From: a plasmid
Direction: 5' to 3' (one strand)
Sequence record: NZ_CP041047.1
Length of the DNA: 64,000 nt
The position numbers were made by a program, and so were the translations under genes. The first letter of the stretch is position 1. The number at the start of each line of letters is the position of its first letter. Shown piece by piece: positions 7,858 through 64,000 of this stretch. The notes below the pieces were generated by a model that had not been told where the DNA came from, did not search any database, and saw only the letters and a list, made by a program, of their open reading frames with translations.

Positions 7858-8955
7858 ACCGTTGAACGTCACATCCGGGGCAAATGGGCCTGCGACAGCT
7901 GCGAGACGTTGATCCAGGCACCGGTGCCACCGCAGGTGATCGACAAAGGCATCCCCACCGCTGGCCTGCTGGCCCAGGTGCTGGTGGCCAAGTATGCCGA
8001 CCATCTGCCGCTGTACCGTCAGGAACGCATGTTCGGCCGTGCCGGCCTGGAAATCCCGCGCTCCACCCTGGCCGAATGGGTGGGTGCCTGTGGTGTGCAG
8101 TTGCAGCCGCTGGTGGATGCGTTGAGAAATACTCTGCTGGAACACAGTGTTCTGCATGCCGATGAAACCCCGGTCAGCATGCTGGCCCCGGGCAAGAAGA
8201 AAACCCACAAGGCCTACGTCTGGGCCTACTGCACCACACCGTTTGCCGACCTGAAGGCAGCTATTTACGACTTCGCACCCAGCCGTGCAGGCGAACACGC
8301 CCGAACCTTCCTGGGTGACTGGCGGGGCAAGCTGGTCTGTGATGATTACGCTGGCTACAAGGCCGGGTTCGGCAACGGCATTACCGAAATCGGCTGTATG
8401 GCCCACGCCCGGCGCAAGTTCTATGACCTGCACGAGGCCAACAAGAGCGAATTGGCGGCCAAGGCCTTGGAATACATCGGTGGACTCTACGAGATCGAGC
8501 GGGAAACCAAAGATCTGCCACCGGATATGCGGCGGGAAATCCGGCAAACCAAAGCCAAACCCCTTGCCGATGCGCTGCATCAGTGGATGCTGGCCCATCG
8601 CCAGAAAGTGCCGGATGGCTCCGGCACGGCCAAAGCCCTGGATTACAGCCTCAAACGTTGGGAAGCGCTGACGCGCTACCTGGACGATGGCGCTGTGCCC
8701 ATCGACAACAACTGGGTGGAAAACCAGATCCGACCCTGGGCGCTGGGGCGCAGCAATTGGCTGTTTGCGGGTTCACTGCGCAGTGGTCAACGTGCGGCTG
8801 CGGTCATGACCCTAATACAGTCAGCGAAGCTGAATCGGCATGATCCCTATGCCTACCTGAAGGATGTGCTGACTCGCCTGCCGACACAGAAGAACAACGC
8901 CATCGACGAGCTATTGCCCCACAACTGGAAACCGGCCATACCTAACAAGGTGTAG
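7858..8955 (+). pseudogene. IS66-family transposase (TnpC), N-terminally truncated by IS26
   Basis: It has the CxxC zinc-finger (WACDSCE) and the conserved IS66 TnpC core and C-terminus (LNRHDPYAYLKDVLTRLP). The coding sequence begins abruptly at the IS26 right end. Confidence 0.8.
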
Positions 8956-11795: not shown

Positions 11796-11981
11796 CGGTG
11801 GGTAATAGACGGTTTCCGGTGGGTAATAGACGGGGTTGGGTGGGTAAACGACGGAACCGGGTGGGTAATAGACGGACTATCCACAGGCTGGATCGCCGGA
11901 TCGATCCCCTCCCGTCTATTACACACCCGCCTTGCGCAAACCCTGACCAGTAGTCGCCTCGCGCTCCGTCTATTACACACC
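11796..11981. repeat. Iteron array: four direct ~21 bp repeats (CGGTGGGTAATAGACGG) plus two inverted copies (CCGTCTATTACACACC), with a DnaA-box-like CTATCCACA and flanking AT-rich DNA
   Basis: Direct repeats begin at 11796, 11817, 11838 and 11858 with 21 bp periodicity. The inverted copies are at 11912-11927 and 11966-11981, and the DnaA-like box is at 11877-11885. AT-rich tracts lie at 11500-11530 and 11700-11790. Confidence 0.6.
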
Positions 11982-16760: not shown

Positions 16761-17311
16761 TGTTGGCAGTTATCGTGGCTACCCGGTCACTACCCTGTTA
16801 GCGTGAGTTTTCGTTCCACTGAGGAACGGGGATTTATGCGCGTTAGCGCATGTAAGGCGGCAGGATGAAATGACAGGTAGCACCGAGGGTTAGCCGCCGA
16901 TACCAGTGAGGGATCGAAAGGGATCGCCTATCCATCCCTTCACCCTGCAAAGCCATATTCCGCTAAAAGCGGCTCAGAGGCTTTTGTGCGCGGTCGGAGT
17001 GGTCACAACAAGGCGAAGCCGCAGTTGGGGCGTATCTCCGCGTTAGCGGGTCGTAAGAGCCGCTTACGAGCGTGTAGGGGTCAGTTTGGATATAGAGAAT
17101 TATTGTACGGTAAGCCTGTTTTTTGAACAGACTTACCTATAGCAATAGGGTGTACTCCCGCGCTATACGGCATTTTCAGAGGTTTGACCTTAATCGGATA
17201 ACCTAAATGCGATACTGCAAGAGCGACAACTTAAAAGCGATAGCCACTGACGCAAAATCAACCACTTACGAACCAAGATTGGTTAAATAATGCGCTTAAC
17301 GTACAAAAATT

Positions 17312-31256: not shown

Positions 31257-31339
31257 AGATGTATCCCCGTTAAGGGAAGTATACAGGCCAGAAGGATTTA
31301 TGAACGGCCTGACATACCTCCTGAAATTCAAGAGTCATA

Positions 31340-31395
31340 TCAGGCGTCATCAGCCCCGGACGGGGCGGTTGGGAAAGGTGGAACGCCATCACCTT
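31340..31395 (-). ncRNA. Fluoride riboswitch (crcB motif) aptamer
   Basis: The minus strand reads AAGGUGAUGGCGUUCCACCUUUCCCAACCGCCCCGUCCGGGGCUGAUGACGCCUGA. It has P1 GGUG/CACC with a GAUGGCGUU loop, the conserved AACCGCC, a P3 hairpin CCCGUCCGGGG and CUGAUGACGCC for the pseudoknot, matching the published fluoride riboswitch architecture. Confidence 0.7.
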
Positions 31396-31401
31396 GACAA
31401 T

Positions 31402-31430
31402 AGTATAAGTCAGAAAAAAGAACCTGTCAG
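31402..31430 (-). promoter_or_regulatory. Sigma70-like promoter (CTGACA-17 bp-TATACT) driving the riboswitch operon
   Basis: On the minus strand the -35 is at 31425-31430 and the -10 at 31402-31407. The predicted transcription start coincides with the aptamer 5' end. Confidence 0.45.
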
Positions 31431-54601: not shown

Positions 54602-54621
54602 TACTGTATGGATATACAGCA
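54602..54621. promoter_or_regulatory. LexA (SOS) box TACTGTATGGATATACAGCA overlapping a TATAAT -10
   Basis: CTGT-N8-ACAG matches the SOS-box consensus and sits 20 bp upstream of the umuD-like start. Confidence 0.7.
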
Positions 54622-54640
54622 CCACGAAGAGCAGAGCATT

Positions 54641-55057
54641 ATGAAACTTATCCCAGTGACACAACAATCACCAGGCCAATTCCCGTTGTTCGTTGAGCCT
54701 GTCAGCGCAGGTTTCCCTTCAGTCGCTTCCGATTATGTTGATGAATTTATTGATCTAAATACTCACCTCATCAAACATCCATCTGCAACCTACTTCTTAC
54801 GAGTAACAGGTTCATCGATGGTAGAGGCACGTATTCACGAAGGCGATCTGGTCATCGTGGATAGCTCACTTGAGGCGAAAGAGGGGGATATTGTGATTGC
54901 GACCGTTGATGGTGATTTCACCATTAAGCGGTTGCAGCTAAGCCCGGCTCCCGCGCTACTGCCAATGAATAGCCGGATGTCACCGATCTATCTGAAAGAA
55001 GGCGAAGAACTGGCCATTTTTGGCGTGGTGACCTTCATCGTGTACAAGGCCTTGTGA
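54641..55057 (+). CDS. umuD: UmuD/MucA-family protein (LexA-like self-cleaving SOS mutagenesis protein)
   Basis: S24 peptidase region ([26 protein letters not shown]). The stop overlaps the umuC-like start (ATGA). Confidence 0.85.
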
Positions 55058-56322
55058 TGTTCTGCCTGGTGGATTGCAACTCATTTTACGCCTCCTGCGA
55101 GAGAGTCTTTCGGCCCGATCTGGTGAACAAGCCAATTGTATGCCTTTCGAACAATGATGGCATGGTCGTGGCACGTTCAGCGGAAGCTAAAAAATTAGGT
55201 ATCCAGAATGGTGACGTGTACTTCCAGAAGAAAGCATTCTTTGAAGCTAACGGTGTACATGTTTTCAGTTCTAACTATGCCTTGTACGCGGAGATCTCCC
55301 GTAGGGTGTGTGAGACATTATTTAAATTCTCCAGTAATACTGAGGTCTACAGTATTGATGAAGTTTTCCTTTCGTTTGAAGGAATGCAGAAAAATTATAA
55401 TTTTGATGACTATGGAAGAGAAATAAAGAAAACCGTATTAAAGAGCACCCATATACCCGTGGGGGTGGGCATATCGACAACTAAAACTTTGGCAAAACTA
55501 GCAAATAAAGCTGCAAAAACATGGACTAAAACAGGCGGAGTGGTTGATCTCAGCAGTCCAGAAAGACAACGTAAATTATTGCCATATATTGACGTAAGCG
55601 ATGTCTGGGGGGTGGGCCGGAGATATGCCACCAGACTGAACAGCATGGGCATCAGGACTGCTCTCGATCTGGCCAATGCGCCAACATCGCTTATCCGTAA
55701 CACATTTGGAGTCGTACTGGAGCGAACGCAGCGCGAATTGAATGGCGAGTCCTGCATAGCCCTGGAAGAGGTGAGGAAGGTTAAGCAGCAGATCATCAGC
55801 TCGCGTTCATTCGGCCAGAAAATAGAGCACTACGAAGCAATGCACCAGGCGGTGTGTGAGTATGCCGAACGTGCAGGCGAGAAGCTGCGCGAAGAGAAGC
55901 AATACTGTCGCTGCATAACGGTTTTTATTGGCACAAGTTACTATTCGAAAACGGCCCCTTACAGTGGCCAGCAGACAGTCAAGCTGGAAAACCCCACCGC
56001 CGATACCCGGGAAATCATTGCGGCTGCGGTCGCAGGGCTCCGGCATATCTGGCAGGAGGGATACCGATACCATAAAGCCGGAGTGATGCTATCTGACTTT
56101 TATGATAGCGCCACCAGCCAGCTCGATTTGTTTGGTGAGAACCGACTCTTTGCCAATGGTGAAGCGTTGATGGGCGTGATGGATAGAATTAACCGGTCAG
56201 GTCGGGGGAAATTATGGTTTGCGGGCCAGGGCATCGACAAAGACTGGACGATGCGGCGGGAGTTATTGTCACCATCCTATCTCACTAACATTAATGAAAT
56301 CCCTCGCGTCAGGATTGGCTAA
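55054..56322 (+). CDS. umuC: UmuC/MucB-family Y-family DNA polymerase subunit
   Basis: The sequence [23 protein letters not shown]... and the [11 protein letters not shown] motif place it in the Y-family. Confidence 0.9.
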
Positions 56323-56471
56323 TCAGCAGTGAAAACTTCATTCGTCATCGATAAAATTCGTCTGTAAACAAAACGAACTTGATATACTCGGTTTCGCTTG
56401 TTATGAGTATGTATGTACATACAGTCCTCCGTGCAGCGGAGGGAGTTTAGAGCCCTTTTTCGGGGATAGAA

Positions 56472-57362
56472 ATGAATATCTCAACAACTTTCCAGACGCT
56501 GGAGAGCGAGATCACACAACTTCGTGGAGTGCTGGGTTCCCGGCTTCCGCTCAAGGCGAGTGTCTGCGTCCTGCCAGCCGTTGCTGATGGCGAAGAAGAT
56601 ATGGCCATCGAACACATCATGCCTGAGCTGAAACAGGGACACGATGCTGTCCATGCTGCCTGCGCGGCATACGCTGACCTGCATATCAGGGATGGCTATT
56701 CGCAGAAGTCCGCTCGGCGCACTACCGGCGTATTATGGTACGACAATACAGATGCGGAATTCTCTCAGCTGGTTACCCGTTTGGTGACATCCATCAACCA
56801 GCATAAAGAGAGCATTCAACGCCACATCATCGAAAACTACGGTGGTGATCGCCGACCGGAATACATGCGCTTCAACGCGCTGCATAGCGCCTGCCCTGGT
56901 GTCATGACCCTGCATCTCTATCGGCAGCTGCGTATGTTTGATAATGCTAACGTCAATCTGGTCAGTTTCGGCTGGAGGCAAAAGACGCTTTTTAGCAGGG
57001 TTAACAAAATCGAGTTGCTCCAGAAGATGGGCAAGGACATCGAGGAAGATGAAGATAAATCAGTCAGACTCAACTCGTTGATTAAGGCTATTGCGCGTGT
57101 ACCGGAAGAAAAGCTTCGCTTACGCCGTCCGGTTAAAGTGCATCCAGCTGCAAACATCGCGATGGCTGATCCTGAACACCCCGACCAGATACTGCGTCTT
57201 TCTGCCGCTTCATCTATGCCGTTCATTATCATTCAGGATGAGCACGTGAAAATTCGGCCATTGCCAGAGTTCGTGGCCAATGAAGTAAAGCCGAGGAGTA
57301 ACCGCCTCAAGACAGATGTGATCGGTATATTCCACGGCGAAAGTATCGAAATGATTCTCTGA
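56472..57362 (+). CDS. tus: Tus-like replication-terminus-binding protein homologue (divergent)
   Basis: Blocks align with E. coli Tus: NISTTFQTLESEI/RLNTTFRQMEQEL, GVLWYDNTD/GVLCYQVDN, PGVMTLHLYRQL/PGLITLNAYRTL, FGWRQK/FGWANK and RPVKVHPAA/RPVKVQPIA. Confidence 0.65.
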   Translation: MNISTTFQTLESEITQLRGVLGSRLPLKASVCVLPAVADGEEDMAIEHIMPELKQGHDAVHAACAAYADLHIRDGYSQKSARRTTGVLWYDNTDAEFSQLVTRLVTSINQHKESIQRHIIENYGGDRRPEYMRFNALHSACPGVMTLHLYRQLRMFDNANVNLVSFGWRQKTLFSRVNKIELLQKMGKDIEEDEDKSVRLNSLIKAIARVPEEKLRLRRPVKVHPAANIAMADPEHPDQILRLSAASSMPFIIIQDEHVKIRPLPEFVANEVKPRSNRLKTDVIGIFHGESIEMIL

Positions 57363-57455
57363 CCACACCGGCCAAAGGACTGGCCGTATTCCCCCCTCAT
57401 AATTTCGTCACTCGCCGTCCATGCCATACCCTGAAACTAATATTGAAAATTCATT

Positions 57456-58055
57456 ATGTTCAGCAAGGAATGTGGCGTGAAATACTTTGAATGTGCGCTC
57501 AGGTTCAGAATCGCCCCAGGTGACGTGTATGGGATCCACCAGCAACTGGATAAGGTAGTCCAGGAACGTTCTGGGTCGCGACTCCCATACACCTTCTACT
57601 CTCGCAAACAAAGTGCCTCCGACACCCAGGTTGTTCTGAGAACGGCTGTTGCACTCGGGCTCCCTGGCGAAGTCATGAAGGAAATCATGTTTGTGTCTGG
57701 CCAGAAAATTCGAATCTGCGGCTCGCTGGCCACTATTCGACGCGAGGAAGCTGGAGGCCGGAAAAGAGAGATTTGTCCACCTGCCCATGAACTCCCGGAT
57801 TATATCCACTATCACCTGGAACGGGCCGGAGTGATCTGTGGACGGTTACGTATCGTTCGAAGCACCAAGTTCCATATTATTAAGCCCGGGAGCGTTGGCC
57901 GTACATCCCACAAGATCATTGTACCGATGAGCCAGTACGATGCTGAATGCGTGATTGAAGATGTCGGCGCACTTGAACAGGCATACGCTTTCGGGATCGG
58001 CAGAAAGCGGATATTCGGCTTTGGCTATATGAACAGCATCGAAGTGCTTTCCTGA
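57456..58055 (+). CDS. Cas6-family (Cas6e/Cas6f-like) endoribonuclease homologue, orphan
   Basis: The catalytic-His context DVYGIHQQL matches CasE DLYQLHQGL and Csy4 LFGKLHQAL, an R-S-T-K-F-H-I motif parallels Csy4 LRSQSTGQHFRL, and the C-terminus has the Gly-rich loop GIGRKRIFGFG (GhGxxxxxGhG). No repeats or other cas genes lie nearby. Confidence 0.5.
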   Translation: MFSKECGVKYFECALRFRIAPGDVYGIHQQLDKVVQERSGSRLPYTFYSRKQSASDTQVVLRTAVALGLPGEVMKEIMFVSGQKIRICGSLATIRREEAGGRKREICPPAHELPDYIHYHLERAGVICGRLRIVRSTKFHIIKPGSVGRTSHKIIVPMSQYDAECVIEDVGALEQAYAFGIGRKRIFGFGYMNSIEVLS

Positions 58056-58343
58056 ACAGGCCATTAAGCATAGTTATTATCTGAATTTCAAACCGACTCG
58101 CAAACTTACGGCATTAACACTTCTGATACACCCTTTAAATGCTGTAAACTGTTGTAGCCCTTACTAAATCGTAAGAGTGGGGATTTGCAGCCCCGACTAA
58201 TGACACGCCGTTCATGTACTTGAACGGTTCGCACTCGCTCGCCTGTTTTTTGTCAATGGTGGGTCGGGGCGTGGGAGCCTTACGGCTCGCCAGTCGTCAT
58301 TAGCTGGTACTGCAAACCATGTTCCGATTCACCACCAAAGGAA

Positions 58344-58601: not shown

Positions 58602-58771
58602 ATGAAAAAGGCTGGCATTTTTGCTGGCCTTATATACCTCCTGGCTCTGCTACTGAAACCACTAACACCGATCAAATGGTCATCAGCGAAATACCCCGTT
58701 CATTTCTATTGACCTCTTTACCTCCATGTAATCAAATTGATGGAATAATAACGGTTACGAGAGACAAACTG

Positions 58772-59263
58772 ATGACGGTGTTATCTGCCCCTGAAATGCG
58801 CTTTGGAACCAAACAGGATGTTCCCTTTATCATAGCGGTGATTCGCGACGGTATGCGGGATGGGTATTTTAACTTTGATGATGATGACGGACTGTCTCAG
58901 TTCGAAAGTCAGATCTCAGAAGCCATTGCCAGGCGGGAACGGGGAGAGAATTGCGCCGATTTCTTGTTTGTCTTTGATGCTCAACATAATGGCGCAGCGA
59001 TAGGTTTTGCCCTACTGACGGGCAAAAATGGTGCAAATGGACTTGCTTCACATCTGGAAATCAGGATGTTTGGTGTTACCAGGAGTCAAAGACAAAAAGG
59101 ATTTGGGCGCTCCATGTTGCAAAGTATTCTGGATGCTACTCCCGGCCATAAAGTGGAGGCATCCTGTCTTCCTGCATCAGTTGTCATGGCCAGGATGCTG
59201 ACTAATGCGGGTTTTCACGTCAAAGAGATAAGCCCGTTTGGAAAGCGTACTTTCAGACGCTAA
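58772..59263 (+). CDS. GNAT-family N-acetyltransferase
   Basis: Acetyl-CoA-binding motif (RSQRQKGFGRSMLQSIL). The likely start is MTVLSAPE, and the ORF-track start at 58676 is probably too early. Confidence 0.55.
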   Translation: MTVLSAPEMRFGTKQDVPFIIAVIRDGMRDGYFNFDDDDGLSQFESQISEAIARRERGENCADFLFVFDAQHNGAAIGFALLTGKNGANGLASHLEIRMFGVTRSQRQKGFGRSMLQSILDATPGHKVEASCLPASVVMARMLTNAGFHVKEISPFGKRTFRR

Positions 59264-63908: not shown

Positions 63909-64000
63909 TCTGTCTCCAAAGCAGTAATCAGTCACTCATAACACGATATTTGCAGTGAAAGTTATATCTGTAAGCAAATTTCGTCAGCTGTTAGCGTCGT

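Follow-up and report, generated by a model that had tools for sequence, protein, structure and literature searches.

The 64,000-nucleotide stretch of plasmid NZ_CP041047.1 analysed here (the window) carries a cas6-like gene directly downstream of a gene for a homologue of Tus, the replication terminus site-binding protein. The gene is a solo, tus-linked variant of the known Cas6 family. It encodes a true, structurally complete Cas6 with its catalytic residues intact, the activity itself being predicted from sequence and model; it has lost all other CRISPR-Cas components, and purifying selection maintains it as a lone gene. The enzyme has probably been re-used for a non-CRISPR RNA job. Our preferred reading, to which we give a probability of roughly 35%, is that this Cas6 binds and cuts a hairpin in the tus leader and so sets the 5' end, stability or translation of the tus mRNA. 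The locus is laid out as follows.

56379..56471, + strand: promoter-like region (TTGATA-17 nt-TATGAG at 56379-56407) and conserved leader of tus
56426-56442, + strand: hairpin 1, CCUCCGU-GCA-GCGGAGG, a candidate Cas6 site with a 7- to 8-bp G/C stem in the tus leader
56453-56465, + strand: hairpin 2, CCCUUUUUCGGGG, overlapping the Shine-Dalgarno (SD) sequence of tus
56472..57362, + strand: gene for the plasmid Tus (replication terminus site-binding protein) homologue, 296 aa, with a Pfam Ter match
57363..57476, + strand: tus-cas6 spacer, with a stem-loop, GTATTCCCCCC, a ATTTCGTCA motif and an SD sequence
57369-57386: stem-loop CGGCCAAAGGACUGGCCG in the spacer, with no U-tract
57386-57396: GTATTCCCCCC in the spacer
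57402-57410: ATTTCGTCA motif in the spacer, common to backbone genes
57465-57469: SD sequence AAGGA of the cas6-like gene
57477..58055, + strand: solo Cas6 endoribonuclease gene, type IV-A3/Cas6e-derived lineage, 192 aa, GTG start
57537-57539: catalytic His21 codon of the cas6-like gene
57993-58025: G-rich loop of the cas6-like gene

A full-length profile match, a structure model and fold matches to Cas6e/Cse3 together place the Cas6 identity beyond chance. The PADLOC profile Cas6_0_IVA3 matched the protein with E=4.1e-39 and 132.5 bits over residues 1 to 188 of 192 (profile positions 2 to 187 of 189), bona fide IV-A3 Cas6 scoring 275 bits on the same profile. The Cas6e profiles of Pfam (PF08798, 23.2 bits, cut-off 25) and TIGRFAM (TIGR01907, 14.2 bits, cut-off 45.2) matched only below their cut-offs and at the C terminus, and a phmmer search of the PDB returned T. 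fusca Cse3 at E=7e-4. The AlphaFold2 model, built from 16 homologues, had a pLDDT of 91 and a pTM of 0.84 and was composed of two beta-alpha-beta-beta halves; its top 24 PDB matches in Foldseek were all Cas6e/Cse3 (best 3qrp_A, E=6.6e-11, TM 0.75). In an hhalign comparison over 175 columns with E. coli CasE, Y18/H21 fell on Y17/H20 and the G-rich loops aligned. The Tyr/His pair was kept in nearly all of 52 aligned family members, and the GxGxKRxFGxG loop, here GIGRKRIFGFG, was likewise kept nearly throughout the family.

A first-pass annotation made from the letters of the window had called the gene a Cas6-family RNase, and the IV-A3 profile match, the Cas6e fold and the intact catalytic residues bear this out. 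Two of the three signatures on which it relied were sound: YGIHQQL lies on CasE Y17/H20, and GIGRKRIFGFG is family-wide. The third, a Ser/Thr-rich segment, falls in a variable loop and is no established signature. The profile search that it proposed stayed sub-threshold with the Pfam and TIGRFAM Cas6e models and succeeded at full length with PADLOC Cas6_0_IVA3, while the proposed structure prediction gave the two-RRM Cas6e/Cse3 fold with TM up to 0.75. As to lineage, it had named Csy4 and CasE for comparison; the protein belongs to the type IV-A3 (Cas6e-derived) lineage and not to that of Csy4/Cas6f. It resembles Cas6e/CasE/Cse3 of the I-E Cascade (PDB 2y8w, 3qrp and 4dzd) in its two-RRM fold (TM 0.68 to 0.75), the position of the catalytic His and the G-rich loop, but it is only about 15% identical, scores below the Pfam and TIGRFAM cut-offs and lies outside any Cascade operon.

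The start of the gene is likely GTG 57477, which is preceded by the AAGGA sequence as in all orthologues. The 199-aa ORF described earlier, 93 nt past the tus stop, is indeed present (57456-58055, + strand); its in-frame ATG at 57456 would lengthen the protein by 7 residues and is absent from the 80%-identical orthologue. The family and fold are already known, and as an annotation the orphan Cas6 call is not new, since the product name given by PGAP is already "type I-E CRISPR-associated protein Cas6/Cse3/CasE". The "type I-E" part of that label is only approximate, given the low identity, the sub-cut-off scores and the lack of a Cascade operon. The PGAP coding sequence (CDS), 57675-58055, is a 126-aa product from Met74 (RefSeq WP_127649377.1, e.g., in NZ_CP022152.1) without the catalytic RRM and His. 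Because residues 1 to 73 are conserved across the family, the RefSeq CDS should begin at GTG 57477; as it stands it drops the catalytic half and needs to be extended. In the literature searched there was no relevant account of a solo or orphan Cas6, a pairing of Tus with Cas6 or a Cas6-like anti-CRISPR (Acr), nor of a Tus-linked, effector-less, selected clade, a conserved tus leader or the mis-annotated start.

Other CRISPR components were sought in the window and on a complete relative, NZ_CP056246.1 (178,786 bp). The window contained no CRISPR-like array, no IV-A3 repeat at up to 3 mismatches (the 29-nt GTATTCCCCCCGCATGCGGGGGTTATCGG-type repeat, GUAUUCCCCCCGCAUGCGGGGGUUAUCGG) and no I-E-type stem CCCCGC...GCGGGG. 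Neither sequence contained an array or repeat within 7 substitutions, a solitary IV-A3 or I-E repeat, or a tblastn match to csf1, dinG, cas5 or cas7 at E<=1. The single tandem repeat in the array scan of both was a 56-bp set upstream of parA, and the sole cas annotation on NZ_CP056246.1 was the cas6-like gene. Plasmids matching the rest of the window carried no annotated cas genes; their contents were metal/stress cargo, insertion sequence (IS) elements and a restriction-modification system. The earlier claim that the window lacks an array and other cas genes was therefore correct, and the wider scan that it called for, made on the complete relative, leaves the orphan status in place. Within the tus-cas6 spacer, GTATTCCCCCC reproduces the opening 11 nt of the type IV-A3 repeat. 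The 80% orthologue does not keep it, having GTAAACCTCCCC, and the match may be coincidental or the trace of a former repeat. At locus L006, just past the stop of the cas6-like gene (8567-8599, - strand), an IV-A repeat model gave 15.6 bits (E about 0.09 to 0.35) with good flanks (GUACUC...UUAUUGG) and a poor stem; nothing comparable stands at the equivalent place elsewhere, and the match is probably due to chance.

The region is found in identical form on approximately 104 plasmids of 180 to 450 kb from Citrobacter, Klebsiella, Enterobacter, E. coli and others, with a MOBH relaxase where typed. Approximately 850 further plasmids, mostly Klebsiella IncHI1B/IncFIB, encode proteins of about 190 aa with 31 to 37% identity (tblastn E about 1e-26), which are the Cas6 of complete type IV-A3 loci (csf1-cas6-dinG-cas5-cas7-array) adjoining umuDC. 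These share with the solo protein the IHQxLD Tyr/His motif, the GxG(R/P)KRxFGxG loop and a plasmid-borne, MOBH setting near umuDC. The solo gene differs from them in having no csf1, dinG, cas5, cas7 or array, in following tus and in forming a separate clade. Type IV-A3 itself took its Cas6 from type I-E (PMC7038947). The family is small, with 49 representative clusters among 1.84 billion proteins in an exhaustive HMMER search and only 6 more loci in scans of species genomes and metagenomes. One protein from the HMMER search, P0058 (1602 aa), has an odd repeat architecture in which 8 separate stretches match residues 10 to 58, the His-motif region, of the orphan Cas6 profile.

Every protein in a group of 39 to 80% identity was encoded directly downstream of tus with no Cas effector genes nearby (loci L003, L005, L006-8, L011-13, L019-23 and L026), whereas every protein in its sister group belonged to a full IV-A operon without tus (L002, L004, L009, L014 and the degenerate L010). 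With effectors surveyed at E<=1e-4, all 12 of 12 orphan-type loci had tus upstream and no effectors, and all 5 of 5 IV-A-type loci had csf1-cas6-dinG-cas5-cas7 and no tus; the physical tie to the Tus homologue that the first reading of the sequence had pointed out extends across the clade. The Tus-linked proteins were monophyletic (neighbor-joining bootstrap 75/100) and shared two clade-specific features, RRE at residues 88 to 90 and a 4- to 5-residue insertion with an invariant His145 at the tip of a long beta-hairpin. Their large MOBH host plasmids fall into two diverged lineages, one of Citrobacter/Klebsiella type and the other of Providencia/Morganella/Moellerella (Morganellaceae) type. 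The flanks of tus-cas6 vary, with umuDC or unrelated genes upstream and either Ner/GNAT or TetR/cupin/MFS genes downstream, and on the Morganellaceae-type plasmids a small ORF or a DUF6710 gene sits between tus and cas6. This slot holds a 75- to 107-aa ORF, a 113-aa ORF or a DUF6710 protein (L006, L008, L013, L019 and L026; L011, 6487-6828; L003, 6173-6865); the two small ORFs searched (107 and 113 aa) had no Pfam match, and the third product carries only the uncharacterised DUF6710.

Identity to the Morganellaceae-type loci was 46 to 47% for Tus and 40 to 44% for its Cas6-like partner, and these matching levels indicate that the two proteins have diverged together. The ratio of nonsynonymous to synonymous substitution rates (dN/dS) for the cas6-like gene was 0.094 against L005 (dS 1.23) and 0.07 to 0.13 within the other subclade, compared with 0.096 for umuD and 0.04 for tus. 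The dependence is one-way: tus homologues were present on 1,325 plasmids, of which approximately 1,200 (IncC, IncA and others) had no Cas6-like neighbour. An earlier suggestion that the gene is a domesticated RNase is plausible for such a selected, effector-less, Tus-linked clade.

The Tus homologue matched Pfam PF05472 at full length (E=5.5e-45, residues 3 to 278 on profile positions 2 to 281 of 296) and scored 297.8 bits on NCBIfam NF002810, just under the cut-off of 323. The E. coli Ter core GTTGTAAC occurred once in the window, which is the chance level. A TerB-like GTATGT(A)TGTACATA was seen in the tus promoter, where GAGTATGTATGTACATAC (56405-56422) overlaps the predicted -10 element and transcription start site of tus; AAGTATGTAT... 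occupies the corresponding place in clade-B loci. GAGTATGTATGTACATAC resembles the E. coli TerB core, GTATGTTGTAACTA. In E. coli, TerB lies in the tus promoter and mediates autoregulation, and GAGTATGTATGTACATAC may be a candidate Ter/operator of the plasmid's own.

Hairpin 1 was found in each of the 8 distinct orphan-linked tus leaders, at position -47 to -55, and the leader as a whole was conserved in 8/8; in the other subclade the hairpin reads CCCCUGC-UUCG-GCGGGGG. A covariance model built from Morganellaceae-type leaders only recovered the window (27.1 bits, E=7e-4) and L005 (28.9 bits), which were its only extra matches in 495 kb (E=2-7e-4). In the model-based alignment, 95% of the helix 1 cells were paired, with compensatory double changes at 2 pairs and wobble-preserving single changes at 3; only 4/500 shuffles reached the covariation score, and slid controls collapsed. 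These compensatory and G.U-preserving changes imply an RNA structure on the sense strand. No hairpin was present at that leader position in three Cas6-less tus lineages (IncC, IncA and a Providencia plasmid). The 3' arm of hairpin 1, GCGG(G/A)GG, equals that of the IV-A3 and I-E repeats.

On the preferred reading, the solo Cas6 would be a stand-alone, hairpin-specific endoribonuclease acting on a plasmid transcript. Its likeliest substrate would be the G/C-rich stem-loop at 56426-56442, approximately 10 nt into the tus mRNA leader, which resembles the stem of I-E/IV-A3 repeats. Binding or cleavage at the 3' base of this hairpin would remove the 5' leader and leave a tus mRNA with a 5'-OH, which would retain hairpin 2 over the SD sequence, so that the level of Tus would be tuned. 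No terminator-like site was found on the + strand between tus and cas6, and co-transcription of the two genes is therefore possible; in that case the level of Cas6 would be tuned too. The overall effect would be that Cas6 sets the 5' end, stability or translation of the tus mRNA, a naturally occurring counterpart of the Csy4/Cas6 "RNA-processing insulator". More tentatively, the solo Cas6 and the leader hairpin may together act as a natural post-transcriptional switch in two parts, in which an exapted CRISPR RNase would couple RNA processing to fork-trap dosage. As a variant, the same protein may also act on I-E/IV-A3 repeat hairpins as a protein anti-CRISPR.

Several observations weigh against processing of the tus leader. 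A covariance model of genuine IV-A repeats gave no significant match in the orphan loci (best L003, 10.5 bits, E about 2.4) and left the window unmatched; for this reason the leader hairpin is not claimed to be a repeat homologue, and the mechanism is one that we infer. The likeness of the hairpin to repeats is confined to a low-complexity G/C stem, and approximately 6 hairpins of the 7-bp CC...GG kind are expected per 64 kb by chance. The fold z-score of the leader is only -0.97, which marks no unusual stability. The co-occurrence of hairpin and Cas6 is phylogenetically confounded, amounting effectively to one origin, and the Cas6-less tus lineages are far more distant. The hairpin could serve simply to stabilise the 5' end, or it could belong to Tus autoregulation. 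Finally, cas6 is perhaps not co-transcribed with tus, because it has an upstream motif of its own that is common to other backbone genes.

That motif, ATTTCGTCA, is present upstream of cas6 in all orphan loci. In its longer form, ATTTCGTCA(C/G), it is enriched across the plasmid (8 observed against 1.4 expected) and lies 55 to 90 nt upstream of several co-oriented backbone genes. It is complementary to the (A/G)UGAAAU start of cas6, but this pairing was rejected as a Cas6 site, as the motif is common to unrelated genes and shows no covariation. From its enrichment and placement, ATTTCGTCA looks like a plasmid-specific promoter/operator signal defining a regulon, not a Cas6 site. Hairpins just upstream of cas6 were also set aside as substrates, being conserved only in the Morganellaceae-type loci. 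The downstream neighbours and the further elements considered are listed below.

54608-56322: umuD and umuC, upstream of tus
57402-57410 and 63978-63986: copies of ATTTCGTCA(C/G) in the window, with several more sites in NZ_CP056246.1 (L015-L018)
58252-58339, + strand: C4 antisense RNA (Rfam RF01695), 62.9 bits against a gathering score of 45; also at 10780-10867 of L005
58344-58601: Ner/SfsB-like HTH_35 gene, downstream of the cas6-like gene
58676-59263: GNAT gene, downstream of the Ner-like gene

The C4 antisense RNA, a phage P1/P7-type immunity RNA on the plasmid backbone, abuts the start of the Ner/SfsB-like gene. As a Cas6 substrate it was discarded, because it accompanies only the Ner-like gene (in the window and L005) and the other orphan subclade lacks it. 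The earlier proposal of a four-gene co-transcribed module running from tus to the GNAT gene was not supported, since a C4-type antisense RNA leader of its own precedes the Ner-like gene and the downstream neighbours in the other subclade differ (TetR and others). What is conserved in gene order is tus with cas6; the Ner-like and GNAT genes are not conserved neighbours. The hairpin-rich element at 16790-17076, which had been named as the obvious substrate, is unrelated to the Cas6. It occurs on 545 plasmids, including many small E. coli and Salmonella ones, versus the approximately 106 with the cas6-like gene; it is IS-flanked cargo beside a RelE/ParE-HTH pair, and it is absent from the other orphan lineages. 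The segment itself is unannotated, G/C-rich and structured, occurs with many Inc types and adjoins that toxin-antitoxin pair, and it had no meaningful match in Rfam (best a chance-level 23-bit miRNA, gathering score 78).

The reading in which the tus leader is processed has to be weighed against four others. In the nearest of these, the substrate is some other plasmid or host RNA, and adjacency to tus is inherited backbone synteny with no functional coupling. The intact catalytic residues and fold and the purifying selection fit this reading, the ATTTCGTCA-type signal of cas6 suggests membership in a plasmid regulon rather than a tus operon, and the tus-leader hairpin is not significantly repeat-like. 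However, tus and cas6 have stayed together down to 40 to 47% protein identity while their surroundings were reshuffled and small ORFs were inserted between them, and no other conserved candidate hairpin was found, those upstream of cas6 being kept in one subclade only. We regard this alternative as possible but on the unlikely side. A role in counter-defence appears less probable still. Here the solo Cas6 would bind or mis-process the pre-crRNA hairpins of host I-E or rival-plasmid IV-A3 systems and disturb effector assembly, as a protein mirror of the RNA anti-CRISPRs, and the link to tus might lie in DNA ends at Tus-Ter barriers that feed spacer acquisition. In favour, the proteins most closely related to the solo Cas6 are those of IV-A3 systems, carried by competing Klebsiella plasmids and themselves derived from the Cas6e of co-occurring I-E systems (PMC7038947); the gene comes right after umuDC at the head of a co-oriented block of approximately 35 kb with ssb and an orphan dam methylase, and leading-region anti-defence islands are commonly bounded by umuDC operons (PMC11541004). 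Double-strand ends do arise at Tus-ter barriers (PMC9699676), and Racr RNAs demonstrate that mimicry of the Cas6-repeat interaction can inhibit CRISPR (PMC10651486). Against this, a decoy has no need of the catalytic Tyr/His, which are invariant, and an active Cas6 cutting at the right place would yield usable crRNAs. The strict linkage to tus is only loosely explained, and no aca-type operon structure is common to both subclades, whose downstream HTH genes differ and stand apart from cas6. The 29 IV-A3 spacers compared (two arrays, a tiny sample) had no match in this plasmid family beyond chance matches of 12 to 17 nt, and the literature searched held no precedent for a Cas6 homologue acting as an Acr.

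Hosts of these plasmids often carry I-E systems. In the first of the two remaining alternatives, the gene would supply pre-crRNA processing in trans, either to I-E on the chromosome or to IV-A3 on another plasmid in the cell, in the way that type III systems are known to use Cas6 (PMC12669027). This is improbable: Cas6 is already encoded within I-E and IV-A3 systems, the orphan clade shows clade-specific changes in the long beta-hairpin at a divergence of 31 to 37% identity, and the gene travels with tus rather than with an array or effector. Related plasmids do carry degenerate IV-A loci near umuDC (L010), and the repeat-like GTATTCCCCCC stands in the tus-cas6 spacer; both speak for the last alternative, in which the gene is a functionless, decaying remnant of a type IV-A locus since lost. 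The lack of conservation of the 11-mer in the 80% orthologue, the intact, full-length ORF, whose catalytic and G-loop residues stay invariant even where lineages are down to 40% identical, and, above all, a dN/dS of about 0.09 to 0.13 over dS>1 argue otherwise; the purifying selection excludes such a remnant, which we consider effectively refuted.

The backbone around the locus encodes its own dnaB, dnaN, ssb, dam, rdgC, umuDC and tus (L015-L017 of NZ_CP056246.1; 54608-64000 of the window). From umuD onward, the co-oriented block of approximately 35 kb consists mostly of small unknown genes and resembles a leading-region/anti-defence island bounded by umuDC. Elsewhere in the window, a fluoride riboswitch (RF01734, 51.6 bits, 31334-31402, - strand) heads a DHHA2/universal-stress/enolase/crcB operon in the plasmid cargo, and three direct repeats of GGTGGGTAATAGACGG with 21-bp spacing (11797-11875) appear iteron- or operator-like.

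In synthetic Csy4/Cas6 insulators, one Cas6 and one cognate hairpin in the 5' untranslated region suffice to cleave the leader and change expression. Those devices are engineered, whereas the arrangement described here would be natural and its hairpin-protein pairing is putative. In common with the Tus-Ter fork traps of E. coli and of IncC/IncA plasmids, the locus has a full-length Ter-family protein, on a plasmid with its own DnaB, DnaN and SSB, but most plasmid tus genes (approximately 1,200 of 1,325, e.g., on IncC) have neither a Cas6-like neighbour nor the leader hairpin. Racr and solitary repeat units (PMC10651486) are comparable in that a mobile element keeps one piece of CRISPR that relies on the Cas6-repeat interaction. 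Racr is the RNA half, a repeat mimic; here the protein half is kept, and no unit passes the repeat model.

Cas6 is viewed as a dedicated crRNA-processing subunit, and solo copies are usually dismissed as remnants or trans helpers. The data obtained here describe a whole Cas6 clade that is solo, selected and tied to a non-CRISPR gene, on large resistance plasmids from Citrobacter, Klebsiella, Enterobacter and Morganellaceae. Should the protein act on foreign repeats, it would open a new class of protein anti-CRISPR with a bearing on conflict between plasmids and on the spread of antimicrobial resistance. Should it instead process the tus leader, Cas6 would have been exapted for gene regulation in nature, and the termination of plasmid replication would gain a new layer of control.

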